64,000 nt of DNA from contig CAZTWW010000001.1 of the NCBI GenBank assembly GCA_964618165.1, forward strand, positions 499 to 64,498, written 5' to 3'. This document shows, piece after piece, positions 26,758 through 63,283 of the stretch. The first letter of the stretch is position 1; each line of letters opens with the position of its first letter. The notes below the pieces were generated by a model. The model had not been told where the DNA came from, made no database searches, and saw nothing but the letters and a program-made list of their open reading frames with translations. Made by a program: the position numbers and the translations under genes. Source of the DNA: an uncultured Candidatus Saccharibacteria bacterium. Its GTDB lineage: Bacteria > Patescibacteriota > Minisyncoccia > Phycocordibacterales > UBA918.

Positions 26758-26826
26758 TTTCTCTACAATAAAAGCGTGGTCTCGTAACCCTGAACGTGCG
26801 AGAATAAAGGCATGTGGAGGTTTCCC

Positions 26827-32800: not shown

Positions 32801-32970
32801 CGGCACTTGATACGTATGCCGGACTTCATACGACACCGGCTGAAGTCATGTACAACCCTATACCAGCGAATGATGTTCATGATATTGTATATCGAGTTCG
32901 CGTTGGATCGACCCAGCCGGCAGGTAATTACGAAACCGAAATCGTCTATATTGCTATCCCTACCTACTAG
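26827..32970 (+). CDS. Giant surface protein (about 2,048 aa) with N-terminal BNR/Asp-box-like beta-propeller, repeated modules of about 170 aa shared with the 3,412-aa protein, and the WxL-like C-terminal domain
   Basis: GGAGG sits 6 nt before the ATG at 26827 (the ORF track lists 26812). Signal anchor VALLLLVVTFGLNL. BNR-like motifs S.T.NGAVSW and FSSGSWTG. The module motifs 'YHWRN[DN][DN]G...RLRL..SNEG...YRLE[YF]...C....W..VG...W......T.....TNIAVATGG........ELE[YF]SI......YCFR' occur at least twice in full, plus two more divergent copies. C-terminus ...NYETEIVYIAIPTY. Confidence 0.85.
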   Translation: MSFFCDCRRPVALLLLVVTFGLNLTILEYVTWPQFAEAAVVTVDATVSLDANAFFFGGSQTVFVSDQVGYKFYPDSTGQCVYSKTTNGAVSWNTPVIVDAQTDCASISVWYDQWTPNDYGTYIHIATMDTAAATDRLYYNRLDTTNDSLLLGTTPVVTSSNSGQGGTFVSGTNSVTVTKSTSNEVFMAVSDATDSFVVRCSTNCNLTTGWTEAGTAFMDLDNDWNILMPVSSGGVLLINRDISLDDIRSRFWNGSSWSVSWTNVDTNAVENATYDVSMAAVIDHTNGDIYLAYGADHDNYTTLDHDIRTAKFSSGSWTGTTAVFTNRALRGLHTVAIALDTNTSTVYVAYILRTTPGTATTGNVYWATSTSAMSAWSAERGPVNITAGDLRGLDLNLMSDERIYVTWQDPAPDDIFGETLADIAPITKLTASGTPSTTIVASTSNAYVGGKFVIRESVTSRNLTDILFTERGTIAADTALANVRLRYDLDTTAPYDCASESYAGTEPQYGLTDTDGFSSTNGTVSFAGLVNISPTQAFCGYVVLDVLDSALDGDTLAISVETPNTHVLVTGGVLVSPAGPVRFATSTLIQNDELTQTSYHWRNDNGTEAAATSATGGIANTPIAAILPNVPRRLRLQVSNEGSLTSPATAFRLEYAEATPTCDGATGWTDVGATNDAWNMSLSANLTEGANTTNIAVATGGVADENTTFLTPNGGVRESSSQTGSLTLLNTNFVELEYSIVASTSASEGSTYCFRVTNAGTPLPVYTQYPAATIAADVSVSASGTQATSLVIPSTVQHVGGQFVLRENTSNRNITSIMITENGTVDGAVGLDNIQLRYDLDTTAPQNCASETYAGTEAQFGVTDTDGFSGANGTSTFTGTLAVSTTSTVCLYVVFDVTGLAVNGETVQIEINSPANDVQVSTGSVSPSTPIALAGTTTLAGAVMTQTGYHWRNNDGGEATSTSATVGTENTILTEHLANSPIRLRLALSNEGAATSVASTYRLEFGPRVTTCDAVSVWTPVGDAADDWNMFDSPALINGANTTNIAVATGGVTDPNPTFIVANSGVRDTTSTSSSLTISTTEFAELDFSITSTNITAFNTTYCFRLTAEGRPLQTYTQYAQLTTAPKRDYKVQRGVTVVAGLTQTLTAGVDYTAPSASSTAFVRITDTHHTPPGRTTAGGGAQNADDYTAYISNPTNITTSFTISRPPAATGNTRVTWEIVEFIGDAGTDNEMIVRGGGAVNFASASTSATGTTVSGIADDADVVVYITGIENRDIARNLFYAQQVTAEWDATNDRPIFRRGAGGAIINVSYAVVEYTGINWRVQRVEHTYASSTVVETKPIDPVNSLARTFIHTQKRMGALGNVNNFGHEVWLSSIGQVSFNLEPAATTPTGHVSVAWVIENQQTSAGAMKVQRTNGTTNAGTEPVTLSISLFTPIESTNNASIFGMSRVVGANTNFPLVNAGLRITGTSTFELWRSEASAEMTYRTEVVEWPVSGLAVRQNYYRFYVDNNALTPADPWPPGPVDVGENSPITALDEPLGESEVVRLRMSLRVANAILPAGLYDFKLQYGLRVTSCSSVGTWTDLGAAGGSGAWRGYAATGTTDGTALSINPPDSGDLLISVSDRAGSLEEENQSPANPYLVNPGEDLEYDWYVQHNGALSRNTYCFRMVRSDGTPLDGYLNYPQLRTAGYAPQTKNWRFYEDAELETPLSPLSSENISPIEIQNQNVIALRVTVGERKNVTGQNVKFRLQYDEDPNFTNPKELAATSTCTATSTWCYADGGGVDNATITTKVLSDADSCTASVGNGCGTHNESPTFVPGFTHQPSANKEFAFYIRHAAARAGAVYYFRLYEVFEDVPVPVASGEVTPSLVAETAKLTLTINGLPSGTTTAGITTTASSTPSTVAFGSLPLNTDVYAAHRIAVTTNATEGYRVLAFARQQLLNVYGTAIPSVTGTNAVPTAWSVGCSLSASGCVGYHATDAVLSGGSTRFAALDTYAGLHTTPAEVMYNPIPANDVHDIVYRVRVGSTQPAGNYETEIVYIAIPTY

Positions 32971-51563: not shown

Positions 51564-51639
51564 GGGCCTGTAGCTCACTTGGTAGAGCGCCTCATTTGCA
51601 CTGAGGAGGCAGCGGGTTCGAATCCTGTCAGGTCCACCA
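51564..51639 (+). tRNA. tRNA-Ala (anticodon TGC)
   Basis: Cloverleaf: acceptor stem GGGCCTG/CAGGTCC with G3:U70, D-arm GCTC-ACTTGGTA-GAGC, anticodon stem CCTCA/TGAGG with loop TTTGCAC, T-arm with TTCGAAT loop, encoded CCA 3' end. Confidence 0.9.
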
Positions 51640-51646
51640 CCGTAAT

Positions 51647-51685
51647 ATAAAACACCACCATTAAGTAATGGTGGTGTTTTATATT
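51647..51685 (+). terminator. Intrinsic terminator after the tRNA
   Basis: Perfect hairpin AAAACACCACCA-ttaagtaa-TGGTGGTGTTTT followed by ATATT. A second hairpin AGCAAGCAATAAGTATTGCTTGC follows at 51687-51709. Confidence 0.8.
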
Positions 51686-51729
51686 AGCAAGCAATAAGTA
51701 TTGCTTGCGTACGGTGGTGGAAGGCGGAG

Positions 51730-52020
51730 ACATGTTTTCGAGCTACTAGCGAGAAAACGGTCGAGCCGGGGTCGAGAACACTTAGTAGATTGAGAACGCA
51801 GTGAATCAATCTACTTAGTGATTCGTGACCACATCGGCGTACTACATTTGAACAGGATGAGAACCGAGGTGCGGCGAAGCCCGCAGACGAGTTTACGAGT
51901 CGAGGACCGCACCGAGTGGGGGTCGAGCGAATGAGCTAGATTATGAGTGAAACGAAATAATCTAGCCATGAGAGTGACCGAATCGTGTTAGGTCTTAGAA
52001 ACTCGTGACCACATCGCTAC
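51730..52020. repeat. Non-coding region with two hairpin + direct-repeat units (TCGTGACCACATCG x2), candidate island junction downstream of the tRNA
   Basis: Hairpin ACTTAGTAGATTGA..TCAATCTACTTAGT + GATTCGTGACCACATCGGCG (~51780-51840). Hairpin GCTAGATTAT..ATAATCTAGC + ...AAACTCGTGACCACATCGCTAC (~51940-52020). Confidence 0.55.
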
Positions 52021-52025
52021 CAAAA

Positions 52026-52058
52026 AATAAAACAAAACCCCGATGCCAGACCGGGGTT
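52026..52058 (-). terminator. Intrinsic terminator for the minus-strand gene 52077-52598
   Basis: Minus-strand reading: AACCCCGGTCTGGCATCGGGGTT followed by TTGTTTT. Confidence 0.75.
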
Positions 52059-52076
52059 CTGCCGGTGACATCAGGG

Positions 52077-52598
52077 TTATTCCTTTTCGATGAGTGCATT
52101 CAGTCGTGAGATGTATTCCTCAAGTGCAGCTCTCGAGAGAGTTTCCACTTTCTTGTCGAGAGTGGAGTGTTGTTGCTTGATTATTTGATCAAGCTGCAGC
52201 ATGGCGTTGTTGTAGGTGGTAAGTGCCAGCCGTTCTTCTTCGTAGAATTTCCTCACCTCATCATATGTTGAGATAAGTGCCCTGATTCCGTCCCAGTTGC
52301 CCCGATATTCTGCTTCAAGCACGAGGATGAAGAGATCGAGACTAGCCCTCCGAAGCCTATCTAACGATTGATCCTGAGATCTATAGTACGCTTCTTCGGC
52401 TTCGGTAATTGCCTCCAGTCTGGCGGCTATCTCCCAGTCTGCCTTGATTTGCGAAAGACGACTCTCGTAATCCGCATGAATCTGGCGGATGGTAGTCTCA
52501 TCCGCAACAGCAGGGAAGGAGAGGCCGACTAAGACGGCGATGGCAATTAGACTCCGAAAGAACATTGTGAACTCCTGTTGTTCGTTGCTTGCACACAA
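52077..52598 (-). CDS. Secreted coiled-coil protein (173 aa), unknown
   Basis: Signal peptide MFFRSLIAIAVLVGLSFPAVA. The rest is helical and Glu/Arg/Leu-rich. This is one of only three minus-strand genes with good support. Confidence 0.65.
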   Translation of the reverse strand: MCASNEQQEFTMFFRSLIAIAVLVGLSFPAVADETTIRQIHADYESRLSQIKADWEIAARLEAITEAEEAYYRSQDQSLDRLRRASLDLFILVLEAEYRGNWDGIRALISTYDEVRKFYEEERLALTTYNNAMLQLDQIIKQQHSTLDKKVETLSRAALEEYISRLNALIEKE

Positions 52599-52675
52599 TA
52601 CGACTAATATACCGCTGTGTCAATACATTTCTATATAAAGTAAAAGGCCCGCGAACTCGTCGCAGGCCCTTCCTC

Positions 52676-52936
52676 TTAAAACGTCACCGGCTCTCTTCTG
52701 TTTGAATTGATGATGTCGATGCAGAGCACTATCTTCGGTAACGGACGTGGCTCATGTTCTGGTCCACCCCAACCGCTAGGATCAGGTCCTTTAATGACGT
52801 CGCCATCTTCGCATTCATAATCACACACCTCAAGCTCAATGCCTGCAAACGCACCTTTCGTGGTTGAGACCACGATTTCCGTTTCGCCATCAAGCCCAAG
52901 GGCAGTGATTGCTTGGAGCAAATCTTTGATTTTCAT
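52676..52936 (-). CDS. Hypothetical acidic protein (86 aa)
   Basis: Clean ORF in the intergenic space. A hairpin GGCCCGCGAACTCGTCGCAGGCCC lies downstream on the minus strand. Function unknown. Confidence 0.4.
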   Translation of the reverse strand: MKIKDLLQAITALGLDGETEIVVSTTKGAFAGIELEVCDYECEDGDVIKGPDPSGWGGPEHEPRPLPKIVLCIDIINSNRREPVTF

Positions 52937-53009
52937 GGGAACCCCGCTTTTTCCTCAGCCGTATAGTACATGCCCCAGATTGTCTGTCCAGTCTTGGTAT
53001 ACTACGAGT

Positions 53010-53402
53010 ATGACCAAGACTGAGCTTACGACTATTATCACGAGTATTCAAAAGCGTCGGGTACAGTATCAGCAACGTCTGAACGAACTCCACCGTCTTA
53101 TTCGCGAAATCGAAGGAGACACGGTATTTAAGGAACAAGCCTTTCATGAGTACCAAGCTCTTTTAACAGAGGCAACCACTGTCCATTTTGACTACACGAA
53201 GCACCTCCGCCACTACTATCCAATTGTAAAGCTCGCAAAAGACTGTCTCACCACCGATAAGGTCATCTCAGACACCCTCGCCACACTCCTCAATGAGCAC
53301 TACACGATGATTATGTCGTTTACTGAGACACACATGCGTGATGTGGAGGAATACACCGCCCTCCTTGCTGAAGGCTATGAGCTTCAGCTCGAACAGCTCT
53401 AA
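53010..53402 (+). CDS. Hypothetical helical protein (130 aa)
   Basis: I chose the ATG at 53010 because TGGTATACT lies 7 nt upstream (52995-53003). The ORF track's start at 52839 is an upstream alternative codon. Confidence 0.55.
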   Translation: MTKTELTTIITSIQKRRVQYQQRLNELHRLIREIEGDTVFKEQAFHEYQALLTEATTVHFDYTKHLRHYYPIVKLAKDCLTTDKVISDTLATLLNEHYTMIMSFTETHMRDVEEYTALLAEGYELQLEQL

Positions 53403-53432
53403 ACCCTGCACACCACGACGTTTCTCCCTACT

Positions 53433-53738
53433 ATGACACCCACCACCATCACGCTCCTCATACTGCTTGTTGTGAATATGGTCACATTCATGGTGGTTGC
53501 ACACGACAAACACAAAGCAATGAAGCGTGGTGAGGTAGAGCGTACACCTGAAGGTCTCATATTCTTTTCGGCCGCTGCCTTCGGAGCCCTTGGTGCTTAC
53601 CTCGCGATGATTATCTTCCGCCACAAGACCCGGAAGTGGTATTTTCAGATTGGGATACCGCTCCTCATCATCCAGAATATCGCCACCCTCTATTGTCTCG
53701 CGCTCCTCTGGCCGAGTGTGAGTCTTTATTTCTCATAA
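53433..53738 (+). CDS. DUF1294 family membrane protein (101 aa)
   Basis: 'AHDKHKAMKRGEVERTPEGLIFFSAAAFGALGAYLAMIIFRHKTRKWYF' matches the DUF1294 signature (DK..A....RIPE..L.....GG..GA.....FRHKT.K). Confidence 0.7.
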   Translation: MTPTTITLLILLVVNMVTFMVVAHDKHKAMKRGEVERTPEGLIFFSAAAFGALGAYLAMIIFRHKTRKWYFQIGIPLLIIQNIATLYCLALLWPSVSLYFS

Positions 53739-53748
53739 TCATATCTCT

Positions 53749-54309
53749 ATGAAAAAACTATCACGCACCGAACAAGCAACGCTCAAGAACCTCAAGCAGC
53801 AGCTCACTACCCTCGAATCAAACCTTCTGACCGCGAAGCGTAAAGAAGGTATCGACGACAACCTCACCATCAAGGTAAAGAAGAATAAAGCCAACTACAG
53901 CAAAACGAAGCGCAACGGTGCCAAGGATACAGTCGAGGGGACGTTCTTCATCCTCCTCACCGTAACGGCAAAGGCCAATACCATCTATGTACCGATCTCA
54001 ATGGCGTCCGGCAAGAAGCAGGCTGGCTTCATGTACCAGATAGAGGGGACAGACACCGGCGCTATCGGGCGAGCGAGTGTCGATAGCCGAGGCGAGGGGG
54101 TGAAGGAGGTGACTGTCGGCACCATTGTCTATGCCATGATCCCACCAAAGATGACAGCTGAATTCAGGATAAATGTCACCATCGGTGGCCGGGTCGGCCA
54201 GACGTACAACATTGTCATCAACCGTATCAACTACAAGCTCAGTCTCGACGACACCCGCTACCAGCAGTACTTGAAGCCAATTGTGTCTGATAGTGTGAAG
54301 TTTAGCTAA
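53749..54309 (+). CDS. Hypothetical protein (186 aa)
   Basis: CATAAT lies 9 nt upstream. No recognisable motif. Lys-rich N-terminus. Confidence 0.55.
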   Translation: MKKLSRTEQATLKNLKQQLTTLESNLLTAKRKEGIDDNLTIKVKKNKANYSKTKRNGAKDTVEGTFFILLTVTAKANTIYVPISMASGKKQAGFMYQIEGTDTGAIGRASVDSRGEGVKEVTVGTIVYAMIPPKMTAEFRINVTIGGRVGQTYNIVINRINYKLSLDDTRYQQYLKPIVSDSVKFS

Positions 54310-54331
54310 TCTTCTCATTCCACTACGACAG

Positions 54332-54340
54332 TGGTACTAT
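54332..54340 (+). promoter_or_regulatory. Extended -10 element TGGTACTAT 6 nt upstream of the MazG-like ATG
   Basis: A TGnTAnnAT motif. Same architecture as the other near-start -10 elements. Confidence 0.35.
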
Positions 54341-54346
54341 GGAAAT

Positions 54347-54694
54347 ATGGATTCAAATGACAGACTAACAATTCTAAGTGAGAGAATAAAGACTTTTTGT
54401 TCTGAGCGTGAGTGGTCACAATTCCATGACCCAAAAAATCTAGCTATCTCTCTACAACTTGAAGCATCTGAAGTGTTAGAGCTGTTTCAGTGGACAAAAG
54501 ATAATCAAGTAAAGTCTGGTAAAGAAGCAAGTATCTCAGAGGAGGTTGCAGACGTTTTTTACTGGTTATTAATGCTTGCTAACCACTATAATATTGATTT
54601 AGTAGAAGCATTAAACTCTAAGATGGATATAAATGAAATTAAGTATCCAGTCAATAAGTCTAAAGGAGTTTCAACAAAATATACTGACCTATGA
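54347..54694 (+). CDS. MazG-like nucleoside triphosphate pyrophosphohydrolase (115 aa)
   Basis: 'LTILSERIKTFCSEREWSQFHDPKNLAISLQLEASEVLELFQW' ... 'EEVADVFYWLLMLANHYNIDLVEAL' is the all-alpha MazG/dCTPase-like fold with its EExxE/D motifs. AT-rich coding sequence. Confidence 0.75.
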   Translation: MDSNDRLTILSERIKTFCSEREWSQFHDPKNLAISLQLEASEVLELFQWTKDNQVKSGKEASISEEVADVFYWLLMLANHYNIDLVEALNSKMDINEIKYPVNKSKGVSTKYTDL

Positions 54695-56550
54695 TTGTTT
54701 ATGAAGCTACGGCTGCAAAGTTTATAGAAGATGTTGATTCAAACAACATTATTTCCGAAATTGAGAAAGCATTTCGAAGTAAGCTAGGTCGTGGAATACC
54801 ACCAAGTGAAATCTCTGCCTACTCAAACTCTTTACCGCACATGGAAAGAGTAGTGAGAAGATCAGGTGTACCTTCTGATTGTGGTATTCTAATAGAATAT
54901 AAAATTCCTCTTACTAACTTCAGAATTGATTTTGTTATATCAGGTGAAGACGACAATGGAAACAAAAATTTCGTAATTGTTGAGTTAAAACAGTGGCAGA
55001 AAGCTGACATTGCAGAGGGTGATGGATTAGTAGAGGCGTTTACCGGCAATGCTTTAAGAACGGTGACACATCCTAGTTACCAAGCATCACGTTATAAAGA
55101 TTATATATGTGATTTTAATGAAGTGTTTTATACAGGTTCTGTAAAAGCATACTCGTGTGCTTACCTACATAACTATGAAGAAAAGAGAGTTGAACCACTT
55201 TTAGATTCACGCTATAGCAAAGTTACCGAAGAGACACCTATTTATTTCAGAGACGATCAATCAAAACTCCAGGAGTTTATAAAGAAGTATGTTAAACAGG
55301 GTAAAGGAATGGATATCCTTTACCATGTAAATAATGGGAGGATTAAACCTTCAAAAAAACTTATTGACCATGTCTCAAGCATGTTTGAAGGTAACAGCAA
55401 TTACATTCTTTTAGATGAACAAAAGGTAGCATTCGAAACAGCTAGAAAGATTGCAAATCAGCAATTAAAGAACGTTGTTATCATAAAGGGTGGTCCTGGT
55501 ACAGGGAAGTCTGTTATATCAGTAAATCTGGTTAGCGCACTACTGAAAGATAACTTAAATGCGATTTTCGTAGCGCCAAACTCGTCGTTTAGAAATGCCT
55601 TGGTGAAGCGGCTTACTCAAAACCATCCAAGGCAACGTATAAACAATATATTCAAAGGCTCGGCTTCGTTTTATGACACCGCAGAAAACGAATTCGACGT
55701 GCTCGTCGTAGACGAAGCGCATCGGCTAAAAGCAAAGGGTGCATTTATGTACAAAGGTGTTAACCAAGTACTAGATGTTATTAAATCTGCACAGACTTCA
55801 ATCTTCTTCATAGATGACAATCAGGCAGTAAGACCAGAAGATATAGGTTCTGTAGAGTCAATTAAGAAAATTGCTGAGTCTCTTGATGTAAATGTTACTG
55901 AGTTAGAGCTTTCGGCACAATTTCGCTGTGCGGGAGCTGATGGCTATCTTAACTGGCTTGATGATGTCTTACAAATTAGGGAAACAGCTAATTACGATGG
56001 TTGGGACAAAAAGAGTTTTGATTTTAGGATATGTGAAAATCCTAATGAACTTCGTGATGAAATAAATAGGAAGTCAGAAGAAGGTTTCAATAGTCGCATT
56101 TTAGCTGGTTACGCTTGGGACTGGACTCCAGCCGGAAGAGGTAATGAAAATGCAGAAGTTAATGACATTTGCATTCCTGAGTTTGATTTTAAAATGCCTT
56201 GGAACTCAAGACGAGTGGGTACAACCTGGGCCATAGAAGATGCTGGTAAAAATCAAATTGGTTGTATTCATACATCGCAAGGCTTAGAGTTTGATTATGT
56301 AGGAGTGATTGTCGGTCTCGACCTGCAATATGATCAACAGTTATCAATGTATTTAACCAAGCATGAACAATATAAAGATAAGCTTGGTAAGAAAGGCTTA
56401 AGAGATAAACCGGAAGAACTTAATAAACTTGTTCGAAATATATATAAAGTGTTAATGTCTCGTGGAATGAAAGGTTGTTATGTGTATTTCATGGATAAAG
56501 AAGTAGAAAATTACTTTAAATCTAGATTAGGAACTGTAAAAGATGTGTAA
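54691..56550 (+). CDS. DUF2075 (SLFN-like P-loop ATPase/helicase) protein with N-terminal PD-(D/E)xK nuclease-like domain (619 aa)
   Basis: ATGA overlap with the MazG-like gene. N-terminal 'FRIDFVISGEDDNGNKNFVIVELKQWQ' has a D...E-x-K arrangement. Walker A 'GGPGTGKSVISVNLV'. Walker B/DEAH-like 'VLVVDEAHRL'. 'SAQFRCAG'. 'IHTSQGLEFDYVGVIVG', a helicase motif VI-like segment. AT-rich. Confidence 0.75.
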   Translation: MIVYEATAAKFIEDVDSNNIISEIEKAFRSKLGRGIPPSEISAYSNSLPHMERVVRRSGVPSDCGILIEYKIPLTNFRIDFVISGEDDNGNKNFVIVELKQWQKADIAEGDGLVEAFTGNALRTVTHPSYQASRYKDYICDFNEVFYTGSVKAYSCAYLHNYEEKRVEPLLDSRYSKVTEETPIYFRDDQSKLQEFIKKYVKQGKGMDILYHVNNGRIKPSKKLIDHVSSMFEGNSNYILLDEQKVAFETARKIANQQLKNVVIIKGGPGTGKSVISVNLVSALLKDNLNAIFVAPNSSFRNALVKRLTQNHPRQRINNIFKGSASFYDTAENEFDVLVVDEAHRLKAKGAFMYKGVNQVLDVIKSAQTSIFFIDDNQAVRPEDIGSVESIKKIAESLDVNVTELELSAQFRCAGADGYLNWLDDVLQIRETANYDGWDKKSFDFRICENPNELRDEINRKSEEGFNSRILAGYAWDWTPAGRGNENAEVNDICIPEFDFKMPWNSRRVGTTWAIEDAGKNQIGCIHTSQGLEFDYVGVIVGLDLQYDQQLSMYLTKHEQYKDKLGKKGLRDKPEELNKLVRNIYKVLMSRGMKGCYVYFMDKEVENYFKSRLGTVKDV

Positions 56551-56590
56551 AAGCAGTTGCAAGTCCGCTCATTATGATCAATGATCAGGA

Positions 56591-56788
56591 ATGACTAAAG
56601 TAAAATATTTACGACACCAGTGTCAGCACTGTGGGTCAGAATCGAAACTTTTAGAAACAATTATTGATGATGAATTTATTTGGGATGATACATCTAAACA
56701 GTATCAACCACACCAATATACGGACTGTTTTGAGCATACTGGTAAAGAGCGTTGTGCTAGATGTCAGCAAGACTGGACTGGGGTATGA
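56591..56788 (+). CDS. Zinc-ribbon miniprotein 1 (65 aa; CxxC...CxxC)
   Basis: 'CQHCGSES...CARCQQ'. AT-rich. Lies 40 nt after the DUF2075 stop. Confidence 0.5.
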   Translation: MTKVKYLRHQCQHCGSESKLLETIIDDEFIWDDTSKQYQPHQYTDCFEHTGKERCARCQQDWTGV

Positions 56789-56973
56789 ATCAACGAATAT
56801 ATTGTTGTAAATGTAAGCTGAAGCTTGAGTATATTGTTTTACGTCAGGTTGAAGAAGTGTTTTATAAGTATGACATAGTTACTAATCAGCTCAGTGATTA
56901 TCACGGAGACGGCTCAGTTATTACGAGTGATTACAAGTGTCCATTTTGCAACACATCACAAACGCTAGATTAG
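56785..56973 (+). CDS. Zinc-ribbon miniprotein 2 (62 aa; CCKCK...CPFC)
   Basis: ATGA overlap with miniprotein 1 (ATG at 56785). 'YCCKCKLKLEY...YKCPFCNTSQ'. Confidence 0.5.
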   Translation: MNQRIYCCKCKLKLEYIVLRQVEEVFYKYDIVTNQLSDYHGDGSVITSDYKCPFCNTSQTLD

Positions 56974-57055
56974 TGTTAATCATCGAGAAATCACTTTACA
57001 ACCCCTCAATCCTTCGGTACTGTTCACGCTAGAGTGTGAGGAAGGGGAGGGTCAG

Positions 57056-57556
57056 ATGACAAACACACAGGCTGAAGTCGAGGCTATCGACGATGAGATA
57101 CTCAAACGGTATGCCGGGTATGGGCGTCTCATGGGGTGGAGTGTCGGGTATTATGACCGGACACTGATGCTCGATGTCCCTGGCAATAGTGGGGCAGTGC
57201 GACTGCAGGTGTTCACGAAACCGAATGCGGAGCTCGTTTGTCACCAGGTCGACCTGCTCGTAATCGATATGAGACGTGTGACGATTCTCCTTCAGTTCAT
57301 GAACTGCTGGAATGATCATACGTGGTTCGGTAACCTGGTGTTTAATCCGGACACTGGGTATGTCTCGTGGCGGTATGGTCTCGCCATTAACCAGCGGTAT
57401 GGTGTCACCGATGGGCAGGTGTCCAAGATCGCCTACACGGCCACAGAAGCGGTGGTCTCAGCGATGCCAGCGCTCTATCTCATTCGTGACACCGAGTGTG
57501 ACCTTGAGACCATTCTGATTCAGATGGCACGTCAGGATGGACATCTCGTGAACTGA
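57056..57556 (+). CDS. Hypothetical protein (166 aa), possibly a YbjN-like fold
   Basis: SD GGAGGG lies upstream. GC-rich again. Weak resemblance to the YbjN/putative sensory-transduction-regulator family. The terminator at 57560-57592 follows. Confidence 0.5.
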   Translation: MTNTQAEVEAIDDEILKRYAGYGRLMGWSVGYYDRTLMLDVPGNSGAVRLQVFTKPNAELVCHQVDLLVIDMRRVTILLQFMNCWNDHTWFGNLVFNPDTGYVSWRYGLAINQRYGVTDGQVSKIAYTATEAVVSAMPALYLIRDTECDLETILIQMARQDGHLVN

Positions 57557-57559
57557 AAG

Positions 57560-57592
57560 ACGACCGCGGTGGCGACACCGCGGTTTTTCTCT
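57560..57592 (+). terminator. Intrinsic terminator
   Basis: ACCGCGGTGGCGACACCGCGGT followed by TTTTTCTCT. Confidence 0.8.
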
Positions 57593-57622
57593 GCCTCGTG
57601 TCGTGGTACGATATCGCGTATT

Positions 57623-58039
57623 ATGGAAATTGAATTTGAGGCGTTGCACCTCCTCTCGCTCGCGTTTGTAGCGGTGGTTATCATACTCGCTGATAGTGAC
57701 GGGGTGGCGTATCTCCGTGGGAAGAAGGAGACGCTCAAGGCTGGGAAGGTGCGCCTCCTTCATAATCTCGCATGGGTCGGGCTCGGGCTCATGGCAGTGA
57801 CCGGTATTGGGCTTATTGCTGAACACCCTGATGTTGTCACCGAAAGTGCCTTTATGGTCAAGATGCTCATGGTGCTCGCACTCTTTGTGAACGGCTTTGT
57901 CATCGGGCAACTGGCGAAGCTCTCGACCGCGACACCGTTTAGACTCCTTTCACCCCGCCAGAAGATGATGATCCTCGCCTCTGGGGCAGTATCCATCTCC
58001 TGCTGGATAGGAGCTGCCATGATTGGCTTTCTCATTTAG
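57623..58039 (+). CDS. Four-TM membrane protein (138 aa), unknown
   Basis: I chose the ATG at 57623 because the ORF track's start at 57569 lies inside the upstream terminator. Hydrophobic helices throughout. Confidence 0.55.
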   Translation: MEIEFEALHLLSLAFVAVVIILADSDGVAYLRGKKETLKAGKVRLLHNLAWVGLGLMAVTGIGLIAEHPDVVTESAFMVKMLMVLALFVNGFVIGQLAKLSTATPFRLLSPRQKMMILASGAVSISCWIGAAMIGFLI

Positions 58040-58413
58040 TACCAGGAGCGTGATTGCAATTGGGTCACAGGAAGCGCATACTTCTCAGTGACGGCAGGGT
58101 GAGGGTGCATTCAACTGTCCCCACCACACTTGCAGGCAGTCTCGCTTTGCCGTCACCGAGGAGACATCCTTTTCATCAAACTTGCTCCGTCATGTACGGA
58201 GCTTCTTTTTTATCAACTTGCAGGGTAGGTGAGTGCATGTTACGTTTATAGTCCTGATAGCAGTCGCGAACGACACCTCCTCCCCGGAGATGCTTGGCCG
58301 CAGCGTTTGTGATTGTTATCAGGACCTTGACCTGAGTACTTAAACCCGAGCCATAGGCGAGGGTTTCTTTTTATATATTGCTGACACATCGAAAAAATGG
58401 TACTGTAACAGTG

Positions 58414-58522
58414 ATGGTAGGGGTGTATACCCCCCTTAGACTGTCCGACTCAATCACTCCTACCAGACACTGCTCTGAAACTGCCTCAACCTGACCCCGC
58501 CCACAAGGTGGGGTCTTTTTTA
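58414..58522 (+). ncRNA. Candidate small RNA (about 110 nt): extended -10 promoter, internal hairpin, intrinsic terminator
   Basis: TGGTACTGT at 58398-58406. Then hairpin AGGGGTGTATACCCCCCT. Then the terminator ACCCCGCCCACAAGGTGGGGT + TCTTTTTT (58495-58522). No convincing ORF in the 470-bp gap between 58039 and 58538. Confidence 0.3.
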
Positions 58523-58531
58523 TGGTATAGT
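58523..58531 (+). promoter_or_regulatory. Extended -10 element TGGTATAGT 6 nt upstream of the CPBP protease ATG
   Basis: Same motif and spacing as at 36703 and 62613. Confidence 0.4.
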
Positions 58532-58537
58532 CGCAGT

Positions 58538-59065
58538 ATGAGGCGACTCGTAGCGTATATCTCTCACCTCGCAGACCCAAATCCGTATCATGCAAATGAA
58601 TGGGCGTATTACCGCTTGCCGGCACTGGTCATCGTGATTGATGTAGTACTGTCAATTGGGTTGGCGGTTGTGTTTAGTGTGACCGATACAATCGAACCAG
58701 TCGAGCCGATCGGGGTACCGATTCTCTCGCTCTGGTTTATTCCGTTTCTTCTCCTTGTATCAACGATTGAAGAGCTCTTATTCCGGATTATACCGCTCTC
58801 TATCGCCATGAGTGCGAGTGAACGAAAGATTATGCATGTGCTTACCGCACTCATCGCCGCCATGCTCTTTGGCTACGTGCATGGTGGGTGGGCGAATGTG
58901 CCCCTCCAGGGGATTGGTGGCTTTCTCTATGGACTCCTCTTTATCCGCTACGCGCGGGGTGGCGAAGCCTTCTTAGAGGCAAGTATCGTCGTGATAATGA
59001 TGCATACGGCCTTTAATGGATTGATTGGGATGATTGCGCTCCTCGGTGGTGAGACCATGTTTTAA
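58538..59065 (+). CDS. CPBP family intramembrane glutamic protease (CAAX protease/Abi-like), 175 aa
   Basis: Motif 1 'EELLFRIIPL', motif 2 'FGYVHG', motif 3 'HTAFN', in a multi-TM protein. I chose the ATG at 58538 (MRRLVAYISHL...). Confidence 0.75.
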   Translation: MRRLVAYISHLADPNPYHANEWAYYRLPALVIVIDVVLSIGLAVVFSVTDTIEPVEPIGVPILSLWFIPFLLLVSTIEELLFRIIPLSIAMSASERKIMHVLTALIAAMLFGYVHGGWANVPLQGIGGFLYGLLFIRYARGGEAFLEASIVVIMMHTAFNGLIGMIALLGGETMF

Positions 59066-59118
59066 GTAGATTGTGCAGTCTTTTATCAGGCAGTCTTCTT
59101 TGGTAAGCTAGGAAGCCT

Positions 59119-60228
59119 GTGAAGCGTATTCTATTGAGTCTTGTTGCTATTGGTATCGTGATTAGCGCGGTTGTTGTCGTGCGTGGTGTGCCAAGTGCCA
59201 TGACACTCCCGTTTAGTGCCACTGAGGAGGATTTTGATAATGAACCAGTTGAACTCCTTGATGCGGAGACGATACGCGTCGGGCAGGGTGGGTGGTATAC
59301 CATCGCGGAGCTGGCCTCCTATAAGCGGCCAGAAGGCCCACTCCGGGTCGGGGTACAGATTGGACACCTTGATAACGATAAGGTACCAGAAGAATTGAAG
59401 GCACTCACAGCGAATACCGGCGCAAGCTTCGGTACGGTAACTGAGCGCGAGCTCATGAAGCAAATTGGCGAGAAGGTACGGGTTGAACTTGAGGCGCGTG
59501 GTGTCGTGGTGGATGTCCTCCCAGCGACGGTACCGCCGAAGTATGAGGCTGACGCCTTCATTGCGCTCCATGCTGATGGTAACCAGAATCGTCGGGCACG
59601 CGGTTTTAAGATTGCAGGACCTCGTCGGGATTATTCTGGCCTCTCTGAGCGTCTAGTCTCGAGTCTCACCACCGCCTACGCCTCGACCACGAAGCTCCCG
59701 TTTGATGACACCATTACCCGTCGAATGACGGCGTACTACGCCTTTAACTGGCCACGCTATGAGCACGCGATACACCCGTTCACCCCAGCCGCGATAGTAG
59801 AGACAGGGTACGTCACCGACGCCGTTGATAGAGCCTTCCTCATTAACCAGCAAGATGTCATCGCCACGGCGATTGCGGACGGCGTTATGGACTTCCTTGC
59901 AACAGAACGAACACCAAATCCACCAGCCGGCTCCCTTGAGATACCAAGCATGCCACTCTCAGGCACCGTTGTCTGTGCACCAATCCGCGCTGACCGTGGT
60001 GGTACCACCACACCAGAATGTGTCCCGGGCCTTAAGACCAGTGACGGTACCCACTACCTCCTTGAGCCAAAGGAGCGAATAGCGACCACCTCACTACCGT
60101 TTACCACGACGGTACGTGGGCGCTACGTACCAGCCAACACACTCCCGAACTACTTCTGGTTCCCATATGAGGTACGTGGCTTCATTATGGAGAGCGAGAT
60201 TGCGACGGTTACCGTTGCACCTTTATAG
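59119..60228 (+). CDS. Secreted N-acetylmuramoyl-L-alanine amidase-like protein (Amidase_3-like), 369 aa
   Basis: GTG start at 59119, with TGGTAAGCT 9 nt upstream. Signal peptide. 'LRVGVQIGHLDN', 'ELMKQIGEKVRVELEARGVVVDVL' and 'ADAFIALHADGNQNRRARGFKIAG' resemble the MurNAc-LAA His/Glu/His arrangement. Confidence 0.55.
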   Translation: MKRILLSLVAIGIVISAVVVVRGVPSAMTLPFSATEEDFDNEPVELLDAETIRVGQGGWYTIAELASYKRPEGPLRVGVQIGHLDNDKVPEELKALTANTGASFGTVTERELMKQIGEKVRVELEARGVVVDVLPATVPPKYEADAFIALHADGNQNRRARGFKIAGPRRDYSGLSERLVSSLTTAYASTTKLPFDDTITRRMTAYYAFNWPRYEHAIHPFTPAAIVETGYVTDAVDRAFLINQQDVIATAIADGVMDFLATERTPNPPAGSLEIPSMPLSGTVVCAPIRADRGGTTTPECVPGLKTSDGTHYLLEPKERIATTSLPFTTTVRGRYVPANTLPNYFWFPYEVRGFIMESEIATVTVAPL

Positions 60229-60242
60229 TATCGAGGCAAGAG

Positions 60243-60272
60243 AAAAGGCGCCTGGTGGGCGCCTTTACTTTA
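60243..60272. terminator. Bidirectional intrinsic terminator between convergent genes
   Basis: AAAGGCGCCTGGTGGGCGCCTTT flanked by A- and T-runs. Confidence 0.75.
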
Positions 60273-60731
60273 ACATTGCTCTGCGTCTGCATGTTTGATA
60301 ATCAGCAACATACCGTCTTGGTGACGCACCCGCCAGAAGTTCCTACCCCAAAAGGGGAACTCACTATTGCCGGGTACAATAAGCGGAGACACTTTCTCTT
60401 TTGTCAGAATACGCCGATTCTCGAGCATGAAGGCTTCGACTCGGTGCAGATCTTTAGATGGTACACTCGATATTGACCAAGCAGAACCGAACCAAAGAAA
60501 GCAGCGTATGAAAAACTTCCGATTAGCCGGTGTACCCGGACGGTAGAGACACTCCTCAAGACGCGATATGAGACGGTCTTCTTGTCGATCGCTCTCACAG
60601 TTAACGATATGGATCAGTTTCTGGTCCTCAAAGAACAACCTCGATGAGAGCGGATCTTCCGTGGTAATGTTCGTGCTTGCTTGTCCGACATAGACGATGT
60701 TGTTGTCGACTATCGGCATCTTGACGTTCAT
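60270..60731 (-). CDS. Hypothetical protein (153 aa)
   Basis: Strong SD AAAGGGGG 6 nt upstream of the ATG on the minus strand. Convergent with the amidase-like gene. No recognisable motif. Confidence 0.5.
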   Translation of the reverse strand: MNVKMPIVDNNIVYVGQASTNITTEDPLSSRLFFEDQKLIHIVNCESDRQEDRLISRLEECLYRPGTPANRKFFIRCFLWFGSAWSISSVPSKDLHRVEAFMLENRRILTKEKVSPLIVPGNSEFPFWGRNFWRVRHQDGMLLIIKHADAEQC

Positions 60732-60849
60732 GGTAAACCCCCTTTGTTTTCCGTCGTGATTATGCCAGCAAATAGCATAAGTGCAAGGAATCCACGACCT
60801 CAGAAGAGAGTGATGCAGTCATATTAGACAAAAGTGCTACTATACATGA

Positions 60850-61581
60850 ATGGATACCACTGAACCACACGAAGCTCAGCCAACTACGATTTCTAACAAT
60901 CGCTATGAATCGCTCAATCGTGTCACCACGCTTTCGAAGTACCTTGCGCTCACACTGTTTGTAGCATTACCGTTTATTGGTGGGTATGTCGGGTATCAGC
61001 TCTCTGCATCGACACATGTCTCGATGCTGTATGAGTCTCCAAGCAACGTTGTGGTGCCTGTGGAGATATCGACACCAACTACAGCCGTCTCTTCTGATGC
61101 ATATACTTCGTGGTCGCTCCAGCAGTCATTCCAGATACCATTGTCTGGTGACACTTCTCTGATTGGAACGCTGCAGTTTGGTGCGATGGGAAGTGTCGGT
61201 GAAGCAATGATTGATGCCCCATTGTCTGCTATTAAAGTCGATGCTGCTGCCAGAACAATACATGCCGATGAAGGAGGTATTCCGCTCCTCACCGTGCATG
61301 AGTATTCAGGTAGCACTACCATGCGAGATTTCATAGCTACACTTATCTTGCCTATTATGACCATGTCTGAAAGCTGTACCATGGAAACGGTCACCACTAA
61401 GGAAGGGAACATTTACTACAGTTTTGTCGGAACACTAGAAGATAATGCTTGTCCGGAACGTATGCAGTTTGTGCAACTAAACAACTATGTAGCGGTTATA
61501 TGGTACACCCCAGTTGATCCAGAATCTGCTCGCATTGACGCCACTAGCCTGCGCCTCACATCACCGACCCTACTGCAATAG
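60850..61581 (+). CDS. Membrane-anchored or secreted hypothetical protein (243 aa)
   Basis: TM helix LALTLFVALPFIGGYVGY. No recognisable motif. Confidence 0.6.
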   Translation: MDTTEPHEAQPTTISNNRYESLNRVTTLSKYLALTLFVALPFIGGYVGYQLSASTHVSMLYESPSNVVVPVEISTPTTAVSSDAYTSWSLQQSFQIPLSGDTSLIGTLQFGAMGSVGEAMIDAPLSAIKVDAAARTIHADEGGIPLLTVHEYSGSTTMRDFIATLILPIMTMSESCTMETVTTKEGNIYYSFVGTLEDNACPERMQFVQLNNYVAVIWYTPVDPESARIDATSLRLTSPTLLQ

Positions 61582-61639
61582 TATGTCTATAAACGCGTAC
61601 CTTAGTTGTTGCATATCTCTGTAATACGTGGTTTTATAC

Positions 61640-61895
61640 AGAGGCGGAGGCTACTTGCCGCACTCGTTACTAACACTAGTACACCAGTGAATTTGGTACG
61701 TAGCCTCCGTAAGTTTGTTCTTTACGGAGGTATATAAAAATGAAAACAAACATTTCAATTGTTCTTTTTATTGATAAGTACGGTGTGGTACACACCACAA
61801 GGCAGGGCTGCATACAGGCAAACATGCAGTAATCACGCGGGGTAACCCGCCTGATAGGGCGCTCGGGAATGAAACCACCGAGCGCCTTTTCATAT
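61640..61895. other. Highly structured non-coding region (candidate ncRNA or riboregulator) ending in a terminator-like hairpin
   Basis: Nested stems GGAGGCTAC/GTAGCCTCC and CTCCGTAAG/CTTTACGGAG. Then four consecutive hairpins: GTGGTacacACCAC, CTGCATacaggcaaacATGCAG, GCGGGgtaaCCCGC and GGCGCTCGGgaatgaaaccaCCGAGCGCC + TTTTCAT. Confidence 0.35.
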
Positions 61896-62101
61896 GCTTG
61901 AAATATCAAAAATATGTGGTCTCGGTGCATTCGAGAAAGTGACGAAAATGGGTGTATCCTGATACCGACATGACGGTCTGTCAAAGGTGTGGTATGGGTG
62001 ATCGGTGCGATAATAGTATTATTTTAAGCCATATTTTGAGTATCCGGTAATCATGTGCTTTGGCTTTGTCAACTTGCCGGCCAGAACGGTGGTGGTAGTA
62101 T

Positions 62102-62545
62102 GTGCATATGGAAAGCATCTTTAATCGTCATACTGATCTCGCGACCGGTATCAAAAATCACCTTCAGACACTGCGTCGGGAGGAACAGCGATTACAGGTT
62201 CGATTGCTCGCGGTCGACCGCTGCCAGCGTGTCATTAAGACCCTCCAACTTGATGCCGATGGGGCAGAGGAAGGGGAGGATGAGTTCAGCGAAGCGCTCG
62301 CGAACGTCGAGGCCATCAAGTACGACCTCACGACCTACCTCCGTCAGCTTCGTGACCGGATTGTGCATATTGAGCGTGGTGTCTCACAGATATACAGTCT
62401 CGAGCAGAATCCGAGTGCACAGACGTTTGCCCTCTATATTGAGGAAGATGCCCGCCTCTGCGCGCGCGATGTCCTCGTTGCACGCGAAGGCTACGATGAA
62501 CTCATCGAGAACATCCAAGCCCTCAGTCACCTCCGCGACCAGTAA
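62102..62545 (+). CDS. Hypothetical helical protein (147 aa)
   Basis: The composition is protein-like. The terminator at 62551-62577 (GCCCCGATGTGGGGT + ATTTTTTG) follows. I rejected the overlapping frame at 62055. Confidence 0.6.
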   Translation: MHMESIFNRHTDLATGIKNHLQTLRREEQRLQVRLLAVDRCQRVIKTLQLDADGAEEGEDEFSEALANVEAIKYDLTTYLRQLRDRIVHIERGVSQIYSLEQNPSAQTFALYIEEDARLCARDVLVAREGYDELIENIQALSHLRDQ

Positions 62546-62612
62546 CGAAAATGCCCCGATGTGGGGTATTTTTTGATTCGGTTATCATAGTATTGAATAG
62601 TAGATATTTTTA

Positions 62613-62621
62613 TGGTATAGT
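62613..62621 (+). promoter_or_regulatory. Extended -10 element TGGTATAGT 8 nt upstream of the ATG at 62630
   Basis: Identical to the 9-mer at 36703 and 58523. Confidence 0.4.
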
Positions 62622-62629
62622 AGGAATAC

Positions 62630-63283
62630 ATGAACAAATTCCAACCAGGCGGTTTGCGTAATCGCCGTGATGATATAGGCGGACGACCACGTGGCGATAT
62701 CAATAGTTACGCCCCGAAGAGTCGCCAAGGAGGCGGTAAGCCAGGCTTTAAGAAGAGCTTTGGCGACCGTGGGAGTAAGCCATTTGGCCGAAATGAGCGC
62801 GATCGTGACACTCGACCACCAATGAAGTCGTATGATGCGATTTGTACCAGTTGTGGTGCCAAGTGTGATGTACCATTCCGCCCAGACGGCACGAAGCCAG
62901 TACTCTGTCGGGATTGCTTTAGTAAGAAGAATGCGAGCGCAACCAACATGGCCGGGCACCCAGAGCGATTCACTCGTACTGAGCGTCAAGGCCACTCTCG
63001 TGACACGTCATACGGCGAGAAGCACGCGCCAGCCGGTGTCTCAAAAGAGCAATACGACCTCCTCGTTGCCCAGCTCACCACGCTAGAGGCGAAGGTGTCA
63101 CAGATTCTCGAGCTCGTCCTTGCTTCAGAAAAACTTGTGACTAATCTGCCTGAACTGACCGTCGAGGCGCCTGTGGCAGCTAAAAAGAAGACAGCTGCCA
63201 AAAAGGCTCCTACTAAGAAAGCGGCTCCGAAGAAGGTGGCAGTAAAGAAAGTAACAAAGAAGGCGACAAAAAAGACAAAGTAA
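62630..63283 (+). CDS. Zinc-ribbon protein with Arg/Gly-rich N-terminus and Lys/Ala-rich histone H1-like C-terminal tail (217 aa)
   Basis: 'CTSCGAKCDVPFRPDGTKPVLCRDCF' gives CxxC-x17-CxxC. The C-terminal tail reads 'AAKKKTAAKKAPTKKAAPKKVAVKKVTKKATKKTK'. A hairpin ACACCCGGCAAAG-actatgt-CTTTGCCGGGTGT follows at 63301-63333. Confidence 0.65.
   Translation: MNKFQPGGLRNRRDDIGGRPRGDINSYAPKSRQGGGKPGFKKSFGDRGSKPFGRNERDRDTRPPMKSYDAICTSCGAKCDVPFRPDGTKPVLCRDCFSKKNASATNMAGHPERFTRTERQGHSRDTSYGEKHAPAGVSKEQYDLLVAQLTTLEAKVSQILELVLASEKLVTNLPELTVEAPVAAKKKTAAKKAPTKKAAPKKVAVKKVTKKATKKTK

Follow-up and report, generated by a model that had tools for sequence, protein, structure and literature searches.

A candidate anti-phage defence cassette pairing a MazG-like pyrophosphohydrolase with a nuclease-helicase in an exchangeable slot downstream of tRNA-Ala(TGC) in an uncultured Saccharibacteria bacterium

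A 64,000-nucleotide stretch of DNA from an uncultured Candidatus Saccharibacteria bacterium (GenBank assembly GCA_964618165.1, contig CAZTWW010000001.1, positions 499–64,498; the whole stretch is called the window below) carries, downstream of a tRNA-Ala(TGC) gene, an AT-rich block that encodes a MazG-like protein, a DUF2075 protein and two miniproteins. What is this block, how did it come to lie where it does, and what might it do for its host? A first-pass annotation, made from the sequence alone, had read it as a candidate defence island acquired horizontally at the tRNA junction. The evidence assembled here leads us to propose that positions 54310–57006 probably represent a horizontally exchanged anti-phage defence cassette, occupying a recombination-accessible slot between two core genes in a variable region downstream of tRNA-Ala. 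Homologous recombination in the core genes on either side, and not tRNA-directed site-specific integration, is the probable route by which the cassette arrived and is exchanged.

The block is set apart by its composition. Positions 54347–56973 have a G+C (GC) content of 0.365, compared with 0.488 for the rest of the window (z = −7.7 against all windows of the same size), and form the sole extended low-GC patch in the 64 kb. Along a sliding-window profile the GC content falls from ∼0.48–0.55 to 0.33–0.41 between ∼54.25 and 57.0 kb, and cumulative deviation places change points at 54267 and 57001. The GC content at third codon positions (GC3) is 0.27–0.35 in the four block genes versus 0.47–0.70 in the neighbouring genes. 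The visibly higher AT content that had been described for the block is borne out by these calculations, composition being far from uniform, and open reading frames (ORFs) and Pfam agree on the gene content first given for it, namely a MazG-like/DUF2075 pair and two zinc-ribbon (CxxC…CxxC) miniproteins. The cassette and its genes are as follows.

54310–57006, + strand: exchangeable low-GC cassette of 2,697 bp, a four-gene operon (bounded by the sister-strain junctions described below and by the GC change points)
54347–54694, + strand: MazG-like all-alpha nucleoside triphosphate (NTP) pyrophosphohydrolase of the DCTPP1/RS21-C6 type, 115 aa (PF12643, 1.4e-15)
54691–56550, + strand: 619-aa nuclease-helicase with an N-terminal nuclease and a DUF2075 domain
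56591–56788, + strand: 65-aa CxxC…CxxC zinc-ribbon miniprotein of a small conserved family
56785–56973, + strand: 62-aa CxxC…CxxC miniprotein, its start overlapping the preceding stop (ATGA)

The slot is delimited by two genes.

53749–54309, + strand: 186-aa ORF, left flank of the cassette slot (GC3 0.70)
57056–57556, + strand: YbjN-like 166-aa gene, right flank of the slot (Pfam YbjN, 8.8e-5; native GC; kept in the sister strain)

Exchange at this slot is indicated by a diverged sister contig from the same sample series (L019, JACCDH011633715.1). The first 798 nt of this contig match window positions 53512–54309 with 93.9% identity and its last 175 nt match 57007–57180 with 96.6% identity, but the 4.0 kb in between (L019 799–4826) are unrelated to the window block. 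Similarity ends where the 186-aa gene stops (54309), the gene being kept as far as its stop codon at 94% nucleotide identity, and returns at 57007, 49 nt 5′ of the YbjN-like start; no repeats were found at the two exchange junctions (54309/54310 and 57006/57007) in the comparison of the two contigs. The sister insert is also low in GC (0.29–0.42) and encodes a D12-class Dam-like methyltransferase, an AIPR/AbiU abortive-infection protein, a type II restriction endonuclease and an N6/N4 methyltransferase. One slot therefore holds alternative defence cassettes in sister strains, which suggests cassette replacement by recombination in the conserved flanks. The sister insert itself has a DpnII-like arrangement, with the AIPR/AbiU gene placed between the Dam-like methylase and the type II restriction enzyme.

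Divergence within the block and in its flanks also disagrees. Across the strain contigs that carry the block (L002–L005 and L018), the density of single-nucleotide polymorphisms is ∼0.2% inside it and 0.5–3.5% in the flanks, a pattern consistent with a recent gene-specific sweep or with transfer between diverged strains; one of these contigs (L005) diverges by 0.19% in the cassette and by 3.5% in the flanks. At a greater distance, the DUF2075 protein is 73–76% identical to the copies in two relatives (L039 and L040), compared with just 53–55% for the adjacent DUF1294 protein. Both features expected of a cassette-exchange hotspot are thus present: alternative defence sets between conserved flanks, and composition and phylogeny discordant with those flanks. 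The horizontal acquisition proposed at first pass is upheld by the large compositional shift, by the slot swap in the sister strain, by the mismatch of block and flank divergence and by the mobility of the gene pair across lineages; the candidate defence role gains from the restriction-modification and AbiU genes in the identical slot and from the recurrence of the MazG + DUF2075 pair in defence-rich contexts.

Hotspots of defence exchange have mostly been described from well-sampled cultivated bacteria. The present slot resembles defence-island hotspots with allelic exchange between core genes in that the same site holds either restriction-modification + AbiU or MazG + DUF2075 and in that its junctions are free of repeats; it differs in belonging to an uncultivated lineage of the Candidate Phyla Radiation (CPR).

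The four genes form an operon in which the two large genes are under purifying selection. Relative to one of the strain contigs (L018), the ratio of synonymous to nonsynonymous changes is 3:1 for the MazG-like gene and 29:7 for the DUF2075 gene, and the MazG-like stop codon overlaps the start of the 619-aa gene (ATGA). The MazG-like protein scores 57.7 bits against PF12643 (cutoff 27), and over residues 16–115, the C-terminal KYTDL tail included, it matches DCTPP1 (PDB code 6sqw) with E = 2e-22. The acids of the ExxE…ExxD metal-binding motif (EASE and EExxD: E39, E42, E66 and D69) are invariant in 20 homologues. Human DCTPP1 is a house-cleaning enzyme that prefers 5-modified deoxycytidine triphosphate (dCTP). 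The likeness to DCTPP1/RS21-C6 (PDB codes 6sqw and 2a3q) thus extends over 100 residues with the ExxE…ExxD motif kept, whereas DCTPP1 is a eukaryotic house-cleaning enzyme without a helicase partner.

The 619-aa protein joins two catalytic domains. A PD-(D/E)xK domain occupies approximately residues 1–230 and shows the D…ExK pattern (D80, E98 and K100), and a DUF2075/Schlafen-group-3 (SLFN-g3) superfamily 1B helicase domain spans residues 260–602 (PF09848, 8.7e-92). The Walker A motif GGPGTGKS (267–274), the DE pair at 341–342 and the nuclease residues D80, E98 and K100 are invariant in 40 homologues. A PDB sequence search with the 619-aa protein gave no match; Foldseek matches of its model include RecD2, Dda, SLFN11, Dna2 and Pif1. 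Full-length Foldseek returned helicase and P-loop NTPase proteins only, so the N-terminal domain was modelled separately. Judged from its domains, the nuclease-helicase is likely the effector of the cassette.

The two miniproteins share no sequence similarity with each other, and neither has a Pfam or PHROG match. The family of the 65-aa protein is rare (25 homologous clusters among 1.84 billion representatives) and carries the motif CQxCG..KLVETxIDDEF..FEHTG..C..C..WTG. The second miniprotein exists as first annotated; its start, however, is more likely at 56785, which gives 62 aa and the ATGA overlap, than at 56761. In L018 all cysteines and both reading frames are intact, with synonymous to nonsynonymous ratios of 5:6 and 2:5 that indicate faster change. 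Neither miniprotein was found beside the pair in the other loci examined, so that both are specific to the window cassette. The idea that these two ORFs are degenerate HNH domains or paralogues was dropped, given the lack of Pfam and PHROG matches, their mutual dissimilarity and their absence from other loci.

The pairing of the two large genes extends well beyond this window. An NTP pyrophosphatase gene is linked to a DUF2075 gene in 20 of 24 distinct loci (18 of 22 when two loci found through a MazG query are left aside), usually with overlapping stop and start codons. Among CPR bacteria the pair occurs in Saccharibacteria, Parcubacteria and Gracilibacteria; all CPR contexts that were looked at have the MazG-like gene just 5′ of the DUF2075 gene, adjacent to or overlapping its start in L007, L009, L010, L012, L025, L026, L039 and L040, and in L027 a McrB-N fragment and an HNH gene stand between the two. 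Outside the CPR the pair was found on a Priestia plasmid (53% identity), a haloarchaeal Halalkalicoccus plasmid (40%) and a Marivirga plasmid (Bacteroidota), in the record of Microcystis phage Mwe-JY31 (40%) and on two IMG/VR contigs (36–38%). On a Halomonas plasmid the MazG gene is downstream of DUF2075, and Bacillus thuringiensis pKK1 has an operon of NTP pyrophosphohydrolase, HNH and DUF2075 helicase genes, the helicase being only 25% identical. The four DUF2075 loci without a partner come from Methanosphaera, Hymenobacter, a Streptomyces plasmid, in which a DUF3883/NOV_C gene lies 5′ of DUF2075, and a viral contig (L032). On the Hymenobacter canadensis plasmid (L022 5001–8987), a restriction-modification system and a DUF4747 gene are followed downstream by two DUF2075 paralogues in tandem (42% and 34% identity to the query), and a MazG-like gene is absent.

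The pair often has defence or toxin-antitoxin genes as neighbours, among them a type I restriction-modification system, a restriction endonuclease, an ABC-three-component gene, OLD nuclease, a Mrr-like type IV enzyme, HigB, M78 peptidase, Fic, HsdM, zeta toxin, KilA-N, PDDEXK_1 and a DNA methylase with a MORC-like ATPase. A McrB N-terminal modified-DNA-binding domain is present in genes of L020 and L027, the HNH match in L020 falling below the Pfam curated cutoff, which hints at a three-component version with an HNH protein targeting modified DNA. HNH genes in or near the pair operon were seen at L020 3548–4615, L027 4016–5004, L025 5707–6417, L009 8621–8968 and L041 1523–2575.

The window MazG-like protein is 67–77% identical to one subtype, while several of the closest DUF2075 relatives pair with a different subtype that is 41–49% identical; MazG partners are therefore shuffled between DUF2075 lineages. 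Named homologues of the 619-aa protein belong to Paceibacteria, Saccharibacteria, Gracilibacteria and Gottesmanbacteria. A C-terminal Peptidase_S24 (LexA/UmuD-like) domain is found in approximately 20 of the top 120 DUF2075 homologues, such as P0034 (L009 6001–8277; residues 638–747) and L028 6345–8354, and suggests that these variants are under RecA or DNA-damage control. Viral collections yielded four INPHARED records (three covering at least 80% of the query) and two full-length IMG/VR contigs; a phage vehicle for the module is possible but, given this rarity, not indicated.

Among described defence proteins one of like architecture is Nhi (nuclease-helicase immunity; Bari et al.) from Staphylococcus epidermidis (SERP2475), with an N-terminal PD-(D/E)xK nuclease and helicase motifs overlapping DUF2075 (10.1101/776245). 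Nhi and the 619-aa protein both carry an N-terminal PD-(D/E)xK domain and a superfamily 1 helicase/DUF2075 domain on one polypeptide, and the PADLOC Nhi model matches the ATPase core; Nhi acts alone, however, whereas the window has a translationally coupled and conserved DCTPP1-type gene. When membership of the Nhi and Nhi-like groups is considered, the nuclease and helicase domains are present, but the match does not extend over the full-length model and the system is not a single gene. The 619-aa protein thus shares the architecture of Nhi and, on the sequence matches, is not placed in the Nhi sequence family. Nhi-like has the same architecture and is unrelated in sequence to Nhi (Millman et al., 2022; 10.1101/2022.05.11.491447); phages escape it through loss of a DNA methylase, and it appears to sense methylated DNA (10.1101/2022.08.27.505566). 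Compared by description, it resembles the present protein in its nuclease + DUF2075 architecture, and the methylase-loss escape would fit the McrB-N/HNH and DUF3883 partners noted above; it differs in being described as a single defensive protein, with no NTP pyrophosphatase partner in the searchable texts.

Two further kinds of defence invite comparison. DUF2075 NTPases have been reported next to modification-dependent restriction enzymes (PMC6765204). Likeness to type IV or modification-dependent restriction (McrBC) lies in the McrB-N + HNH genes that L020 and L027 have within the pair or coupled to it and in the HNH genes of L025, L009 and B. thuringiensis pKK1, whereas the window cassette has no recognizable modification-reader domain and its own nuclease is of the PD-(D/E)xK type. 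Nucleotide-depletion defences (dCTP deaminase as well as dGTPase; Tal et al., 2022) share the presence of an enzyme that consumes deoxynucleoside triphosphates (dNTPs) in a defence context, but they belong to unrelated enzyme families and act alone, whereas here the NTPase is always subordinate to the nuclease-helicase. No report that combines MazG, pyrophosphohydrolase or DCTPP1 with DUF2075, Schlafen or Nhi was found in the open-access literature, which is not proof of novelty; the MazG + DUF2075 pairing is conserved across domains and apparently undescribed.

How might such a cassette work? The helicase would move along invading DNA and the nuclease would degrade it, the invader probably being recognized through base modification or replication intermediates, by analogy with Nhi-like and Nhi. 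The MazG-like enzyme would hydrolyse dCTP or, more likely, 5-modified dCTP, and hydrolysis in the dCTP pool could starve phages that build modified-cytosine DNA. Alternatively, it could keep modified nucleotides released by degradation out of host DNA and so prevent self-targeting. This link to modified cytosine is speculative and argued by analogy. A wider proposal, that MazG-like + PD-(D/E)xK-DUF2075 is a widespread defence system as yet without a name, in which a third gene (HNH or McrB-N-HNH) is often present and that couples destruction of modified-cytosine DNA to hydrolysis of modified dCTP, is offered tentatively and seems to us rather doubtful as a whole. Its scope might take in CPR bacteria, Bacillus-group plasmids, Bacteroidota, Halomonas, haloarchaea and some viral contigs, with the S24 variants perhaps switched by RecA or DNA damage.

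Several observations weigh against an exchanged defence cassette, or against parts of that proposal. No truly empty slot was found in close relatives: a scan of genome contigs with the amidase gene gave distant relatives only (44–54% identity), and a scan of metagenomes with the YbjN-like flank gave same-population contigs only, L019 among them. The GC content of the module is near that of its flanks in most other hosts, but it is also below them in L026, L027, L029, L039 and L040; with the module lower than its flanks in several related CPR genomes, part of the low-GC signal may be intrinsic to a frequently exchanged module and not due to recency alone. The family of the 619-aa protein has more than 8000 matches in the CPR at 60–78% identity across phyla, which would also fit a lineage-typical housekeeping role. 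The PADLOC Nhi model (PDLC02372, E = 1e-16) covers only residues 219–412 of the query and 161–329 of the 470 positions of the model, and AbiO is likewise limited to the ATPase core (Nhi and AbiO together span residues 218–413, E ∼1e-17); because these matches are confined to the core, the protein is not a close relative of Nhi. Finally, the modified-cytosine link draws on few loci (McrB-N + HNH in L020 and L027, DUF3883 in Streptomyces) and on the analogy with DCTPP1.

The abundance and good conservation of the family in the CPR are what recommend a first alternative, in which the pair is a nucleotide-salvage or DNA-housekeeping module of bacteria that lack de novo nucleotide synthesis: the nuclease-helicase would degrade imported or damaged DNA and the DCTPP1-like enzyme would clean or convert the dCTP pool. 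Some copies lie beside metabolic or ATP-synthase genes, NUDIX or MutT genes occur near the pair in two loci, and the house-cleaning role of human DCTPP1 would agree with such a function. We nevertheless consider this unlikely. The sister strain fills the same slot with restriction-modification and AbiU genes, the surroundings of the pair vary and contain many defence and toxin-antitoxin genes, and plasmids carry the pair in free-living Bacillota, Bacteroidota and Halomonas and in a haloarchaeon, all of which synthesize nucleotides; the foreign composition of the block and the disagreement between block and flank divergence also speak against such a role.

A second alternative, improbable in our estimation, keeps the defence or addiction context and assigns the MazG-like protein the part of regulator or antitoxin, restraining the nuclease-helicase or destroying a nucleotide signal or alarmone until infection, with abortive infection by self-DNA damage as the outcome. 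A small, translationally coupled upstream gene is the arrangement of many toxin-antitoxin and sensor-effector pairs, the C-terminal LexA/UmuD-type S24 autopeptidase of many homologues suggests DNA-damage/RecA activation, and cleavage of host DNA with slowed cell division was raised as a possibility for Nhi (10.1101/776245). The invariance of the MazG-like catalytic residues and the close homology to DCTPP1 argue instead for an enzymatic role on nucleotides, as opposed to one of protein binding alone. The four DUF2075 loci without a partner indicate that the effector is not obligately toxic alone, and the shuffling of MazG subtypes between DUF2075 lineages is a further point against an antitoxin.

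The route of arrival remains to be considered, and with it the tRNA gene and the region between it and the block.

51564–51639, + strand: tRNA-Ala(TGC) (ARAGORN; Rfam tRNA, 65.4 bits; synteny)
51640–51836, + strand: conserved structured spacer element, candidate non-coding RNA (L029/L013 alignment, RNAalifold, fold z)
51913–52016, + strand: second, diverged copy of the 3′ hairpin unit (CGAGnnGGGGTCGAG, hairpin, CTTAGnnAnTCGTGACCACATCG; direct-repeat families D5 and D15)
52077–52598, − strand: 173-aa ORF of native GC, with a terminator-like hairpin at 52031–52063
52676–52936, − strand: 86-aa ORF of native GC
53433–53738, + strand: DUF1294 membrane protein (Pfam, 6e-18; native composition)

The tRNA-Ala(TGC) gene, the single tRNA in the window according to ARAGORN, is where the first-pass annotation had placed it, and the two minus-strand ORFs and DUF1294 are all present between it and the block. 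Upstream, the tRNA is preceded by Ddl, Pterin-4a dehydratase and a 225-aa gene, in that order. The same order, with a homologue of the 225-aa gene, precedes tRNA-Ala(TGC) in L029, where a low-GC island follows directly; in addition to a Mrr-like type IV restriction enzyme and a DUF4325 gene, this island has a MazG + DUF2075 pair of its own, whose MazG is 67% identical to the window copy and whose DUF2075 is only 42% identical. In L013 the tRNA is immediately 3′ of Ddl (UvrC, one gene, Ddl, tRNA-Ala(TGC), a 147-aa ORF, amidase), and the distance from tRNA to amidase is ∼1 kb, compared with 7.5 kb in the window. The neighbourhood 3′ of tRNA-Ala(TGC) repeatedly gathers defence genes, by a route that here has no attachment-site (att) signature.

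It had been supposed that the tRNA junction served as the integration site of the block. One version of this idea, very unlikely in our view, is that the interval from tRNA-Ala to queA is one classical island, integrated at tRNA-Ala by a site-specific recombinase and since degraded. The much longer tRNA-proximal interval than in L013, the low-GC defence island directly 3′ of the same tRNA in L029, a large serine recombinase beside tRNA-Ala(GGC) ∼8 kb past the block and outside the window, and a 23-nt repeat that duplicates the 3′ edge of a conserved spacer segment 180 nt further on would all suit it. The partial copy of the tRNA 3′ end that such an event should have left was searched for as a 26-mer and a 16-mer with at most three mismatches, and within the window only the tRNA itself was matched. 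No direct or inverted repeats beyond chance flank the block, the 23-nt repeat has no further copies, and the block begins 2.7 kb 3′ of the tRNA, behind five genes of native composition, with native composition again in the genes after it. The sister-strain exchange junctions are internal to the region and repeat-free. As the first-pass annotation had stated, no integrase remains: none turned up when the ORFs of 47.5–63.3 kb were scanned with Pfam or, for the remainder of the region, among public gene calls and their Pfam marks. Comparison of the tRNA-Ala to queA interval in relatives, which had been put forward as a check, thus has a divided result: the region is variable, with the slot content swapped in the sister strain, but it bears no att signature, and the tRNA as integration site of the block is not supported. 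That the block reflects a chimeric assembly or a chance fluctuation in composition can be dismissed, since, metagenome assembly though the source is, contigs of seven independent assemblies carry the same junctions at 96.8–99.8% identity, which excludes an artefact, z is −7.7 and the ORFs are intact and under purifying selection. Exact-match look-ups found the region, at 98.8–99.8% identity, on contigs of several unbinned metagenome assemblies, GCA_013558375.1 among them.

Both queA and the serine recombinase sit past the window end. The recombinase (543 aa, with Resolvase, Recombinase and Zn_ribbon_recom domains; L001 12929–14132, ∼65.3 kb in window coordinates) adjoins the second tRNA, tRNA-Ala(GGC), just 3′ of queA, and may mark the end of another mobile element.

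The spacer between tRNA-Ala and the first minus-strand ORF (51640–52076, 437 nt) is of interest in its own right. It contains a perfect 21-bp terminator-like hairpin (51643–51686), and the repeat-containing, hairpin-bearing spacer recognized at first pass is confirmed: a 23-nt direct repeat (51814–51836 and 51994–52016, 87% identical) has a hairpin before each copy, and no further copies with up to seven mismatches were found. The 14-mer TCGTGACCACATCG has two exact copies in the window, where 0.01 would be expected. The structured element is made up of this 21-bp hairpin, one of 9 bp and a larger domain whose end is TCGTGACCACATCG. The whole spacer folds much more stably than shuffled versions (z = −9.8). 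In a blastn alignment of 281 columns, covering the tRNA and ∼200 nt of spacer, the window and L029 share 77% identity, compared with only 30–49% for the flanking proteins; blocks of the spacer are also common to the window and L013. The element is conserved in all three compared genomes with this tRNA (the window, L029 2743–2942 and L013 8949–9150), where flanking proteins are 30–67% identical, and the conserved part stops at the TCGTGACCAC motif. RNAalifold on the three sequences gave 58 pairs, 24 of them with compensatory changes. An Rfam scan of 51–58 kb, followed by one of the spacer alone at E ≤10, returned the tRNA and sub-threshold noise only. The spacer has the look of a structured RNA, or of an element that binds protein, which is associated with tRNA-Ala(TGC) and has not been described before; with three sequences compared, this is a lead. 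The 23-nt repeat was considered as an att site of the block and rejected; it marks the 3′ edge of a spacer segment that is conserved in two other genomes, with its second copy 180 nt downstream. A 12-nt segment of the spacer (51710–51721) is perfectly complementary to 51633–51644, the tRNA-Ala 3′ end and the first trailer bases (TCCACCACCGTA/TACGGTGGTGGA).

The genes around the slot add some detail. In L039 and L040 too, a DUF1294 homologue (53–55% identical) is found just 5′ of the MazG + DUF2075 pair. DUF1294 and a zf_Tbcl_2 treble-clef protein recur near the pair in L039 (1112–5987), L040 (835–4920) and the window (53433–63283), and an ATP-synthase operon comes next in L029 and L039. The slot could be a long-standing hotspot of this clade. 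The 186-aa ORF has a synonymous to nonsynonymous ratio of 21:7 relative to L018, which indicates purifying selection. Public records place a minus-strand gene at window positions 53998–54318 (166 aa in L001), and a stop codon interrupts the window copy. Because of this stop codon and of its position antisense to the high-GC3 ORF at 53749–54309 under purifying selection, the call is probably spurious. The YbjN-like gene is an orphan that matches only itself among 5.8 billion protein clusters and has no relatives outside the population. Elsewhere in the window there are two giant ORFs, at 168–10406 (3412 aa; a single DUF2341 match) and 26812–32970 (2052 aa; no Pfam match).

Defence islands as such are ordinary; what is mechanistically suggestive here is a pairing that is conserved across domains and apparently undescribed. 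Within the known class of nuclease-helicase defences, the new element is apparently that an effector of Nhi-like architecture is combined with a DCTPP1-type partner that is itself conserved. Should the proposed function hold, a nuclease-helicase coupled to an enzyme of the dNTP pool would join the nuclease-NTPase class of anti-phage systems and would provide a testable link between the modified-DNA sensing of Nhi-like and the sanitation of modified nucleotides; the same reasoning has been put forward for human DCTPP1 and, at a greater remove, for Schlafen helicases. Little is known of the defence repertoires of CPR bacteria, in which the module is common, and the occurrence of different defence cassettes in one slot of sister strains is a natural experiment indicating that cassette exchange operates in the reduced genomes of the CPR.

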